Origin: Escherichia coli
Lineage (GTDB): Bacteria; Pseudomonadota; Gammaproteobacteria; Enterobacterales; Enterobacteriaceae
Length of the DNA: 1,996 bases
Direction: 5' to 3' (one strand)
Assembly: GCF_003334405.1 (NCBI RefSeq)
Contig: NZ_QOWM01000041.1
Below are positions 1-1,616 of this stretch, in pieces; position 1 is the first letter of the stretch, and the number at the start of each line of letters is the position of its first letter. The notes beneath the pieces were generated by a model. It made no database searches. It was not told the DNA's origin and saw only the letters and a list, made by a program, of their open reading frames with translations. The translations under genes and the position numbers were made by a program.

Positions 1-810
1 AACCAGATGGACCCGGTGTACACGCCGGCGCGAAAAATCCACCTGTACCACTGCGACCATCGCGGCCTGCCGCTGGCGCTTGTCAGCACGGAAGGGGCAA
101 CAGAATGGTGCGCAGAATACGATGAATGGGGCAACCTGCTGAATGAAGAGAACCCGCATCAGCTGCAGCAGCTTATCCGCCTGCCGGGGCAGCAGTATGA
201 TGAGGAGTCCGGCCTGTATTACAACCGCCACCGCTATTATGACCCGCTGCAGGGGAGGTATATCACTCAGGATCCGATTGGGCTGAAGGGGGGATGGAAT
301 TTTTATCAGTATCCGCTGAATCCGGTTCAGTATATAGATTCAATGGGACTGGCATCAAAATATGGACACTTAAATAATGGCGGATATGGAGCGAGACCCA
401 ACAAACCGCCTACGCCCGATCCAAGTAAATTGCCGGACATAGCGAAACAATTAAGACTGCCATATCCTATTGACCAGGCCAGTAGTGCGCCTAATGTTTT
501 CAAAACATTCTTCAGAGCATTAAGCCCTTACGACTACACACTGTATTGCAGGAAGTGGGTAAAACCAAATCTGACTTGTACGCCACAGGATGATTCCCAG
601 TATCCAGGGATGGATACAAAGACAGCAAGTGATTACCTGCCACAGACAAATTGGCCAACAACTCAATTACCACCAGGATATACTTGTGCAGAACCCTATT
701 TATTCCCAGACATTAATAAACCCGATGGGCCAGCAACAGCAGGGATAGATGATTTGGGTGAAATTTTAGCTAAGATGAAACAGAGAACATCGAGAGGAAT
801 AAGAAAATGA
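1..810 (+). CDS. ybfO: Rhs-family protein, 3' portion only (5'-partial; reading frame is open from base 1, so the ATG at 7 is an internal Met). Contains the end of the RHS repeat-associated core and a 152-aa variable C-terminal (CT) toxin domain of unknown activity; possibly an orphan Rhs core-CT fragment
   Basis: Translation carries the hallmark end-of-core motifs of Rhs proteins: [76 protein letters not shown] is at nt 226-246, DPIGL at 271-285 and the terminal DSMGL at 337-351. Composition switches from GC-rich to AT-rich at about nt 290-350, as expected at an Rhs core/CT junction. Stop TGA at 808-810. The symbol is from memory of the K-12 RhsC-region gene order and was not verified by search. 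Confidence 0.9.
223..351 (+). other. Rhs core/CT boundary: putative aspartyl-protease autoprocessing region ([21 protein letters not shown] ... [10 protein letters not shown]), with predicted release of the CT domain after Leu115 (nt 349-351)
   Basis: Seen in sequence: two D-x-x-G-L motifs 22 residues apart, DPIGL (aa 89-93 of the ORF-track numbering) and DSMGL (aa 111-115). Established knowledge: in Rhs and Tc-toxin RHS cages a PxxxxDPxGL motif marks the C-terminal autoproteolysis site, and the variable toxin domain starts immediately after it. The conserved Pro is replaced by Ser here. Confidence 0.7.
352..810 (+). other. Variable C-terminal (CT) toxin domain of the Rhs protein, 152 aa, Pro-rich, 3 Cys, no motif I can assign to a known toxin family
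   Basis: Sequence downstream of the DSMGL motif is AT-rich and shows none of the core consensus, as expected for a polymorphic-toxin tip. I could not find HNH-type, PD-(D/E)xK-type or deaminase-type motifs by eye. Confidence 0.6.
792..798 (+). promoter_or_regulatory. Shine-Dalgarno (GAGAGGA) for the immunity gene, lying inside the 3' end of the Rhs CT coding sequence; indicates translational coupling
   Basis: Purine-rich GAGG/AGGA core with an 8-nt spacer to ATG 807; start and stop codons overlap. Confidence 0.55.
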
Positions 811-863
811 AAAGAGTTTTGTTCTTTTTGCTGATGATATTTGTTAGTTTTGGTGTTATAGCT
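807..863 (+). other. Signal peptide of the putative immunity protein (aa 1-19, predicted SPase I cleavage after VIA)
   Basis: KR at positions 2-3, then a 13-residue hydrophobic stretch [13 protein letters not shown], then small residues at -3 and -1 (V-I-A). Not a canonical lipobox because Asp sits at -1 relative to Cys21. Confidence 0.6.
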
Positions 864-1376
864 GATTGCGAAATACAAGCTAAAGATCATGATTGTTTTA
901 CTATTTTCGCTAAGGGTACTATTTTTTCCGCGTTTCCTGTCTTAAATAATAAAGCCATGTGGAGATGGTATCAGAATGAGGACATCGGTGAGTATTATTG
1001 GCAAACAGAACTGGGTACATGTAAAAATAATAAATTCACACCAAGCGGGGCGAGACTCTTAATTCGCGTCGGGTCACTACGCCTTAATGAAAATCATGCC
1101 ATCAAAGGAACGTTGCAGGAGTTGATAAATACAGCAGAAAAAACGGCGTTTCTCGGCGATCGGTTTAGAAGTTATATAAGAGCGGGTATCTATCAAAAAA
1201 AGAGCAGTGATCCAGTTCAGTTGTTGGCAGTCCTTGATAATTCAATCATGGTAAAATATTTTAAAGATGAGAAACCAACTTATGCTCGAATGACAGCACA
1301 TCTCCCGAACAAAAATGAGTCTTACGAATGTTTAATAAAGATACAGCATGAACTAATTCGTAGTGAAGAGAAATAA
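807..1376 (+). CDS. ybfC: Putative Rhs immunity protein, 189 aa, with a predicted Sec signal peptide (exported, probably periplasmic)
   Basis: ORF starts at ATG 807 and overlaps the upstream stop by 4 bp (ATGA at 807-810), with a GAGAGGA Shine-Dalgarno 8 nt upstream. This is the classic position of an immunity gene directly 3' of an Rhs CT. N-terminus [19 protein letters not shown]|DC has a basic n-region, hydrophobic core and V-I-A cleavage site; the mature part has 4 Cys. AT-rich like the CT it follows. Stop TAA at 1374-1376. The symbol is from memory of an E. coli K-12 189-aa secreted protein and was not verified. Confidence 0.8.
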
Positions 1377-1458
1377 AATCTCTTCCTGAGAAAACAAATT
1401 AATCATTGTGAAAAATTATATAACTCATGGAATAGGTGTTTATTTTGCGTTCCATTTG

Positions 1459-1616
1459 CAGGGAAAGATCACGTAACGCTACTTTTTTGTACTAAATAAT
1501 TCGAATTTTAAGTTCAACAATTGAGATACTACTTATTGTCTAAAGCTGTTTTTCATAGCTTATACATGATCAAATACTCCTTACATAAATAAGGTGAACA
1601 AATGGAACTTAAAAAA
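1459..1616 (+). repeat. Direct repeat copy 1 (pairs with 1839-1996; period 380 bp)
   Basis: Hand alignment at offset 380: 150 of 158 identical. All 8 mismatches fall at 1504, 1511, 1515, 1518, 1529, 1531, 1538 and 1539. Confidence 0.9.
1591..1596 (+). promoter_or_regulatory. Shine-Dalgarno (AAGGTG) for the H-rpt transposase ORF; an identical site recurs at 1971-1976
   Basis: AAGGTG with a 5-nt spacer before ATG 1602. Confidence 0.5.

Follow-up and report, generated by a model that had tools for sequence, protein, structure and literature searches.

Introduction

The closest described relative of the locus examined here is the rhs locus of Salmonella Typhimurium (STM0291/STM0292; PMC3967940, PMC7043789), where an rhs gene of full length and its immunity gene, rhsI, are followed by a 5'-truncated orphan rhs-CT (CT, C-terminal domain) and a further rhsI. 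Recombination between the main and orphan genes yields an expressed chimera, and ancestral cells, in which expression of the orphan RhsI is insufficient, are unprotected (PMC3967940). An internal promoter, P2, sits just upstream of the motif that marks the boundary between the Rhs core and the CT, and has been reported upstream of many Rhs toxins, some of them from E. coli (PMC7043789). A second precedent is the orphan cdiA-CT/cdiI of E. coli EC93, in which a start-less, displaced toxin fragment and an immunity gene lie downstream of the main pair; this orphan is co-transcribed with the main genes, and its immunity protein is made without detectable orphan toxin (PMC3150448). Here we analyze a 1,996-nucleotide (nt) stretch of E. 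coli DNA (assembly GCF_003334405.1, contig NZ_QOWM01000041.1; hereafter, the window), which matches the E. coli K-12 chromosome at 100% identity and contains the 3' part of the RhsC element: an orphan Rhs fragment (ybfO/rhsO) ending in a putative toxin domain, the gene ybfC encoding a putative immunity protein, and remnants of ISAs1. We find that the start codon of ybfC overlaps the stop codon of the Rhs frame in a junction that appears to be conserved throughout this toxin family, and we consider what this overlap may mean for the expression of the two genes.

Overlaps of this kind have been studied in E. coli at hyfHI, astDB, ydbH/ynbE, and menDH, which are co-directional pairs with a 4-nt ATGA or a 1-nt overlap, and in which a Shine-Dalgarno (SD) sequence within the 3' end of the upstream open reading frame (ORF) constrains the C-terminus of the upstream protein (PMC6728339). 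Four of the five overlapping pairs tested were translationally coupled, and the SD usually mattered; predicted structure at the downstream translation initiation region (TIR) accompanied strong coupling, and de novo initiation is suppressed by such structure (PMC6728339). Junctions with an ATGA and an embedded SD are among the commonest in bacteria, and Rhs cassettes and orphans are well described, so the junction as such is ordinary. Its K-12 context is a small, uncharacterised, apparently periplasm-directed Rhs toxin family with a probably exported immunity protein; this family, together with a frameshifted ybfC that lies behind a full-length toxin gene in other genomes, is the least ordinary aspect of the locus.

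The toxin stop and the ybfC start share an ATGA

The Rhs frame of the window is open over bases 1-810 and ends at TGA 808-810. The downstream gene, ybfC (807-1376; 189 aa; like the other features located below within 1-1376, on the plus strand), begins at ATG 807-809, so that stop and start share an ATGA at 807-810. This overlap is evident from the sequence (cgAGAGGAataagaaaATGAaaagag), from the list of ORFs, and from relatives. The SD of ybfC, GAGAGGA (792-798), lies within the toxin codons S-R-G (tcG AGA GGA), 8 nt before the ATG, with its core GAGG (794-797) 9 nt from the A of the ATG; it is assigned from the sequence, from its position in relatives, and from codon bias. A preliminary description of this DNA had claimed both the ATG/TGA overlap and an SD within the final codons of the toxin, and both are correct. 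The pair thus has the layout of the E. coli overlaps cited above: two co-directional genes that overlap by a 4-nt ATGA, with the SD lying in the 3' end of the first ORF.

By itself, an ATGA is weak evidence of anything, since only an A before the stop codon is needed, with a chance of about 1 in 3. What goes beyond chance is that this ATG opens a 189-codon ORF in DNA of ~35% G+C, and that a signal-peptide-like N-terminus follows directly. An alternative start of ybfC at ATG 834 was considered and rejected: the N-terminus read from ATG 807, MKR plus a hydrophobic stretch, is kept in close relatives, and remote relatives also have a signal-peptide-like N-terminus after the called start.

The comparison covered 16 loci with YbfC homologs 59-90% identical to the K-12 protein, drawn from Escherichia (including E. 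albertii), Pseudocitrobacter, Citrobacter, Kluyvera, Salmonella, and metagenomes, which together yield eight distinct junction sequences. All eight have the ATGA and an SD at the same position, with variable flanking bases. Four remote Rhs-CT relatives (toxin identity 35-46%) bring the sample to 12 lineages, and in each of the four the downstream gene encodes a YbfC homolog (phmmer 1e-8 to 1e-29). The remote junctions are more varied, with ATGA in two, TAG-t-ATG (a 1-nt gap) in one, and a 14-nt GTG overlap in the last. Overall, 10 of 12 diverged lineages in the toxin/immunity family have the ATGA, and the distance between stop and start stays between -14 and +1 nt in all 12. Other cassettes in the loci examined have stop/start spacings of -1, +8, +13, and larger. 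These alignments indicate that the junction is conserved beyond chance and is an ancestral feature of this small Rhs toxin family.

Codon usage points in the same direction. Among the last nine toxin codons of the eight close sequences, arginine is always encoded by AGR (25/25, compared with 63/109 elsewhere in the module; Fisher p ~1e-5), and glycine always by GGR (9/9, compared with 88/160 elsewhere; p ~0.01), though these p-values are optimistic because the sequences are related to each other. In one Citrobacter locus (L012), an R-to-K change turns GAGAGGA into AAAGGAG, and the SD is retained. The purine-rich Arg and Gly codons of the toxin tail therefore appear to keep the SD in place in close relatives.

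The cassette occurs as an orphan and on full-length rhs genes

The preliminary description also read the two genes as a single toxin/immunity module, and their distribution bears this out. The CT and the downstream ORF are co-inherited across genera and across rhs loci, always with a tight junction; each of the 20 loci examined has a YbfC homolog directly after the CT homolog, among them the remote ones and one at a different rhs locus. The upstream gene has the make-up of an Rhs toxin gene, with an Rhs/YD core ending in the boundary motif and then a variable C-terminal domain. Sequence evidence therefore supports treating the pair as one cassette.

In K-12 this cassette is an orphan, a possibility that the same description had raised. 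At the RhsC element of strain J53 (locus L001, whose coordinates are converted to window coordinates by subtracting 9000), the gene order is kdp-ybfA-rhsC-ybfB-[orphan Rhs fragment, ybfO/rhsO]-ybfC-ybfQ-ybfL-ybfD. The K-12 copy is a 5'-truncated Rhs fragment, annotated 'missing N-terminus' by the Prokaryotic Genome Annotation Pipeline (PGAP), and lies 30 nt after ybfB; its first in-frame ATG (L001 8377, the b0703 start) has no SD. It shares 1,020 bp with the upstream full-length rhsC at 97.8% identity, the homology ending at window position 324. The K-12 cassette is thus an orphan rhs-CT/rhsI that has core homology and lacks translation initiation signals, as does the Salmonella orphan, in which the core homology is 522 bp at 95%. 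Orphan cassettes behind another rhs/immunity pair are found in K-12, in E. albertii (L014), and in Citrobacter (L002/3 and L009).

Elsewhere the cassette forms the end of full-length rhs genes, whose proteins have 1379-1399 aa; these are found in Citrobacter (L004, L012), Kluyvera (L005-7, L015), S. salamae (L010), and E. coli itself, where examples are strain 300709 (L017), an O157-type genome (L026), and strain 746 (L025). The strain 746 copy (L025 1272-6037) is 96% identical, has an intact ATGA, and is part of a full-length Rhs gene at the rhs locus adjacent to nikR. As this copy lies beside nikR and not at the kdp-ybfA locus, the cassette seems to have moved between rhs loci.

How common are the two states? 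The CT-plus-ybfC segment is present in 3,518 of 5,426 complete E. coli genomes, in one copy each, and the K-12-type junction between ybfB and the orphan in 2,652, so that roughly a quarter of carriers must be arranged otherwise. Evenly sampled records agree with this figure (8 of 38 are annotated as full-length 'RHS element core protein'), and the carriers without the ybfB-orphan junction that we inspected have the cassette on a full-length gene. Moreover, a virtual recombinant of the K-12 rhsC with the orphan, 4,200 nt long, matches the full-length gene of strain 300709 at 99.86% identity. Natural E. coli isolates thus carry exactly the kind of product that arises by main/orphan recombination in Salmonella. 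The orphan state (K-12) and the full-length state (300709, O157) form a natural genotype pair in which coupling, orphan silence, and toxin action could be compared.

A small presumed toxin family with a probably exported immunity protein

The presumed toxin is the variable C-terminal domain of the Rhs frame, delimited by alignment of the family (152 aa, 352-810 including the TGA stop). Its family is small, with 28 representatives among 1.84 billion proteins, and those that can be identified are all Rhs C-termini; the family alignment has three invariant Cys, and no His at invariant positions. Pfam, PDB, and fold searches with the CT domain gave no match, and no match of known function was found for the CT or for YbfC in Pfam, NCBIfam, PADLOC, PDB, and fold searches or in the literature. 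The words 'toxin' and 'immunity' are accordingly used here in an architectural sense, for putative roles suggested by the order and make-up of the genes.

The Tae/Tai proteins are periplasm-acting effector/immunity pairs of type VI secretion systems (T6SS), with exported immunity proteins. YbfC, a presumed immunity protein on the basis of its ORF, its homologs, and a structure model, would resemble this type in its putative signal peptide at the N-terminus (a lipobox in relatives) and its conserved pairs of Cys, alongside the three invariant Cys of the CT; a signal sequence of Tai3 is mentioned in PMC7216683. The putative signal peptide of YbfC (807-863) is placed by alignments and inspection at the 19 residues before D-C, which are also the residues of low confidence (pLDDT, predicted local distance difference test) in the structure model. 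By inspection, an MKR n-region is followed by a 15-residue hydrophobic stretch and then A-D-C. Relatives of YbfC have lipobox-like sequences of the form [LIM]-[AG]-[AS]-C (for example, L-A-S-C or I-A-A-C); the proteins of E. coli, E. albertii, and Pseudocitrobacter read I-A-D-C, with Asp at -1 and no standard lipobox. Judged in this way, YbfC is probably an exported, lipid-anchored periplasmic protein, and the E. coli protein, given its Asp at -1, may be cut by signal peptidase I.

YbfC homologs are confined to Enterobacteriaceae. The structure model (pLDDT 80; predicted template modelling score, pTM, 0.76) is an immunoglobulin (Ig)-like beta-sandwich that resembles only generic Ig-like domains, and a search of solved structures returned no relative. 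All 16 aligned sequences have Cys30 and Cys175; close relatives also have Cys21 and Cys72, which are lost in the remote L020 and L022. From the probable export of YbfC, and by analogy with exported T6SS immunity proteins, the toxin presumably acts in the periplasm. In this respect the cassette differs from that of Salmonella Typhimurium: the two systems have different toxin and immunity families, and the putative signal peptide or lipobox of the immunity protein here suggests a target in the periplasm; the Salmonella Rhs-CTs, by contrast, arrest growth upon expression inside the cell.

One allele of ybfC deserves separate mention. In O157:H7-type genomes, the gene after a full-length Rhs gene with this CT is a ybfC that carries a frameshift (L026 5468-6038, corresponding to window 807-1376). 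The change consists of C824T and one extra T, GTTTTGTTCTTTTTG becoming GTTTTGTTTTTTTTTG, which gives a run of nine T (T9) in signal-peptide codons 5-8, corresponding to window 817-830. Frame 0 then stops after 13 aa, with the remainder of YbfC preserved in the +1 frame. An exact match to the 81-nt T9 allele occurs in 221 complete genomes; the matches listed all fall under 'RHS element core protein', and the examples listed are O157:H7. Slippage, in transcription or in replication, could occur at the T9 run; failing that, these genomes would have a toxin gene without an immunity gene.

Transcription of the orphan cassette

The preliminary description had added that ybfC would need a promoter of its own if the upstream toxin is a silent orphan, and that none was obvious. 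The latter point stands. A sigma-70 scan of the window returned five promoter-like sites, compared with 6.2 expected from shuffled sequence, and the sole plus-strand site upstream of 807 (CTGGCA-18-AATAAT, 349-378, 9/12 matches) is not above chance. The concern over a promoter arose because the window cuts off the upstream context, with ybfB beyond its edge. The 30-nt gap between ybfB and the orphan contains no terminator-like site, so that co-transcription with rhsC-ybfB is the simplest expectation, and the EC93 cdi orphan is a precedent for such read-through transcription of ybfC (PMC3150448). EC93 differs in that its system is one of contact-dependent growth inhibition (CDI), with delivery by two-partner secretion and with other proteins.

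Published data on this region include binding studies and promoter tables. RNA polymerase is reported to bind in vitro inside rhsC, upstream of ybfB, and genomic SELEX (systematic evolution of ligands by exponential enrichment) places binding of the RpoH and RpoE holoenzymes within rhsC, ~130 nt before ybfB (PMC5493296). In the promoter tables, ybfO-ybfC form one unit, and a constitutive sigma-70 promoter is listed only downstream of ybfC, before ybfQ (PMC3946193); the published sequence, TTTTCA-17-AATACT, maps to window 1550-1578.

Proposed translational coupling and its alternatives

From the anatomy of the junction, its conservation, its codon bias, and its two genomic states, we infer the following mechanism. 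The toxin tail, S-R-G-I-R-K-stop, also encodes the SD of ybfC and the first base of its start codon. In the full-length state, ribosomes finishing the ~1,400-codon Rhs protein would terminate at UGA 808-810 and re-initiate at AUG 807-809, held there by the SD 8 nt upstream. The immunity protein would then be made whenever the toxin is made, and the SD would also permit some independent initiation. Such termination-reinitiation coupling is plausible, and is the most likely mechanism for the full-length state. In the K-12 orphan, transcription of ybfC would probably depend on read-through from rhsC-ybfB, and any translation would have to begin de novo at the SD of ybfC. The orphan frame has no credible start and may bring no ribosomes from upstream, so that coupling may be idle here, and low expression of ybfC is to be expected given the predicted pairing of most of its SD. 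The coupled, expressed state would return if rhsC recombined with the core of the orphan. Overall, we think it probable that the junction is a conserved, dual-coded initiation region that is coupled when the gene is full-length, and that the K-12 orphan copy is transcribed by read-through and expressed at a low level.

The predicted pairing of the SD comes from a weak hairpin at 791-830, found by folding (z = -2.7), in which 791-804 pairs with 817-830 (-12.1 kcal/mol). In K-12 the hairpin would bury the SD, 99% paired in the prediction, and leave the AUG in the loop; its pairs are nearly all A-U and G-U. An Rfam scan of the window, with E values up to 1, found no RNA family. Local TIR structure predicted for the K-12 copy may be a further likeness to the E. 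coli pairs of PMC6728339; the differences are that the structure at ybfC is not conserved and cannot be told from a by-product of composition, and that the upstream ORF in K-12 is probably untranslated. A selected, SD-sequestering hairpin, considered as evidence of coupling, was rejected, for want of covariation, for its weak consensus (an RNAalifold energy of only -3.1 kcal/mol for the alignment), for its ordinary stability, and for its variable accessibility. Most likely, the hairpin is a by-product of a purine-rich basic tail beside U-rich signal-peptide codons, although on the folding prediction it may be functionally relevant in the K-12 allele.

Several points weigh against the mechanism proposed above. 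Covariation in the hairpin is absent, with 84.8% of cells paired compared with 84.7% after shuffling; when the downstream arm is recoded synonymously, 33% of the variants equal or exceed the native sequence in stability; and SD accessibility among relatives ranges from 0.01 to 0.93, so that the hairpin is not a conserved feature. Conservation of the SD may in part reflect constraint on the toxin protein, since the basic C-terminal tail, R-G-x-R-K-stop, is conserved as protein. An overlap is no guarantee of coupling, as bioBF initiates de novo (PMC6728339). The toxin and immunity roles are putative, neither protein belonging to a family of known function, and the combination of a full-length toxin gene with a frameshifted ybfC in O157:H7 is awkward for an obligatory logic of toxin with immunity. 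Finally, a literature search on ybfO/ybfC found no transcript, ribosome-profiling, or protein data; the publications found on ybfC/ybfO and rhsC/ybfB were limited to operon and promoter tables and one transcriptome of Shiga toxin-producing E. coli (STEC).

The alternative that fares best is that the K-12 orphan cassette is silent and its junction a fossil of the full-length state, functional only after recombination with rhsC. The orphan lacks initiation signals, no plus-strand promoter-like site upstream of 807 exceeds chance, the hexamers of the segment equivalent to Salmonella P2 are degenerate (see below), and the K-12 SD is occluded in the prediction. The chromosomal orphan rhsI also gives ancestral Salmonella cells no protection (PMC3967940), as would be predicted for a cassette that is coupled but not translated. 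Yet 2,826 genomes have an intact ybfC with an identical junction, and the protein is conserved across genera, which suggests selection on YbfC as a protein. The absence of a terminator between rhsC-ybfB and the orphan cassette, and the reported binding of RNA polymerase inside rhsC in vitro (PMC5493296), also count against silence. We therefore regard a silent K-12 cassette as possible but, on present evidence, unlikely.

More doubtful is the view that the overlap is simply a matter of gene packing, with the SD of ybfC used de novo in orphan and full-length contexts alike and upstream translation irrelevant. In its favor, the SD is well spaced and conserved, and it is predicted to be mostly unpaired (0.79-0.93) in L005, L010, and L024; there are precedents both for de novo initiation despite an overlap, at bioBF (PMC6728339), and for an orphan immunity protein, the CdiI of EC93, that is made while its CdiA-CT goes undetected (PMC3150448). 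However, most overlapping pairs tested in E. coli proved to be coupled (4/5; PMC6728339), the SD of the K-12 copy is almost fully paired in the prediction, and a spacing of -14 to +1 nt in 12 lineages is tighter than independent initiation requires.

A bolder extension of the coupling mechanism is that the orphan Rhs cassette is translationally silent as a unit, so that its immunity gene is switched on only after recombination brings ribosomes through the toxin frame. This reading is suggested by an immunity start that is welded to the toxin stop and by an SD that is buried in the K-12 allele, and we hold it to be improbable. If true, orphan immunity genes would not be a standing shield against foreign toxins, and would instead be armed together with their toxin; the T9 frameshift tract of O157:H7 would then be a second, slippage-dependent layer of the same control.

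Very improbable, finally, is a core-internal promoter like Salmonella P2 that would produce a short CT-plus-immunity transcript and make the cassette a toxin-antitoxin-like module: P2 is reported upstream of many Rhs toxins, some E. coli ones included (PMC7043789), and a segment homologous to the P2 region is present at window 178-285, but the alignment is 72% identical, under the 80% criterion of that study, its hexamers are a degenerate counterpart of P2 (ATGATG-17-TACAAC, compared with TTGACG-17-TACAAT in our own reading of the published 108-mer), the -10 equivalent lacking the final T, the segment was not picked up by the promoter scan, an exported YbfC would be unable to counter a toxin in the cytoplasm, and a CT produced inside the cell would lack the signal peptide needed to reach a periplasmic target.

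Other features of the window and its surroundings

Upstream of the CT, the window begins with the 3' end of the Rhs core of the orphan fragment (1-324), recognised by the NCBIfam RHS_core, TIGR03696, and Pfam RHS models and by alignment to rhsC. The RHS_core match (E 2.8e-70) covers model positions 1146-1261, the last 116 positions of the model, and TIGR03696 matches residues 2-117 of the Rhs frame. A PxxxxDPxGL-type motif at 322-351, identified in the translation and in an alignment of eight relatives, marks where the core gives way to the variable C-terminal domain; its second P is S in E. coli, and relatives have DPxGL. Along window positions 1-1400, G+C content drops stepwise: the Rhs core has ~59%, the CT ~44%, and ybfC 31-43%. 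This is the classic composite make-up of Rhs elements and is consistent with a cassette foreign to its core.

Downstream of ybfC, a 158-nt direct repeat, 95% identical (1459-1616 and 1839-1996), represents the 5' ends of two copies of ISAs1 (H-repeat). The gene ybfQ (ATG 1602) is a transposase fragment whose frame stops at 1856, and the next ISAs1 copy starts at ATG 1982. From the 380-nt repeat offset, an equivalent of the ybfC-ybfQ promoter would be expected in the second copy at ~1930-1958.

Two further observations concern ybfB. It shares its reading frame with the orphan Rhs fragment (L001 8257-8290), the two being separated by the ybfB TAA and ten sense codons, a coincidence that may be due to chance (1 in 3). 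At the rhsC/ybfB junction (L001 7922-7935), stop and start overlap by 1 nt in TAATG, with a GGAG SD 7 nt upstream.

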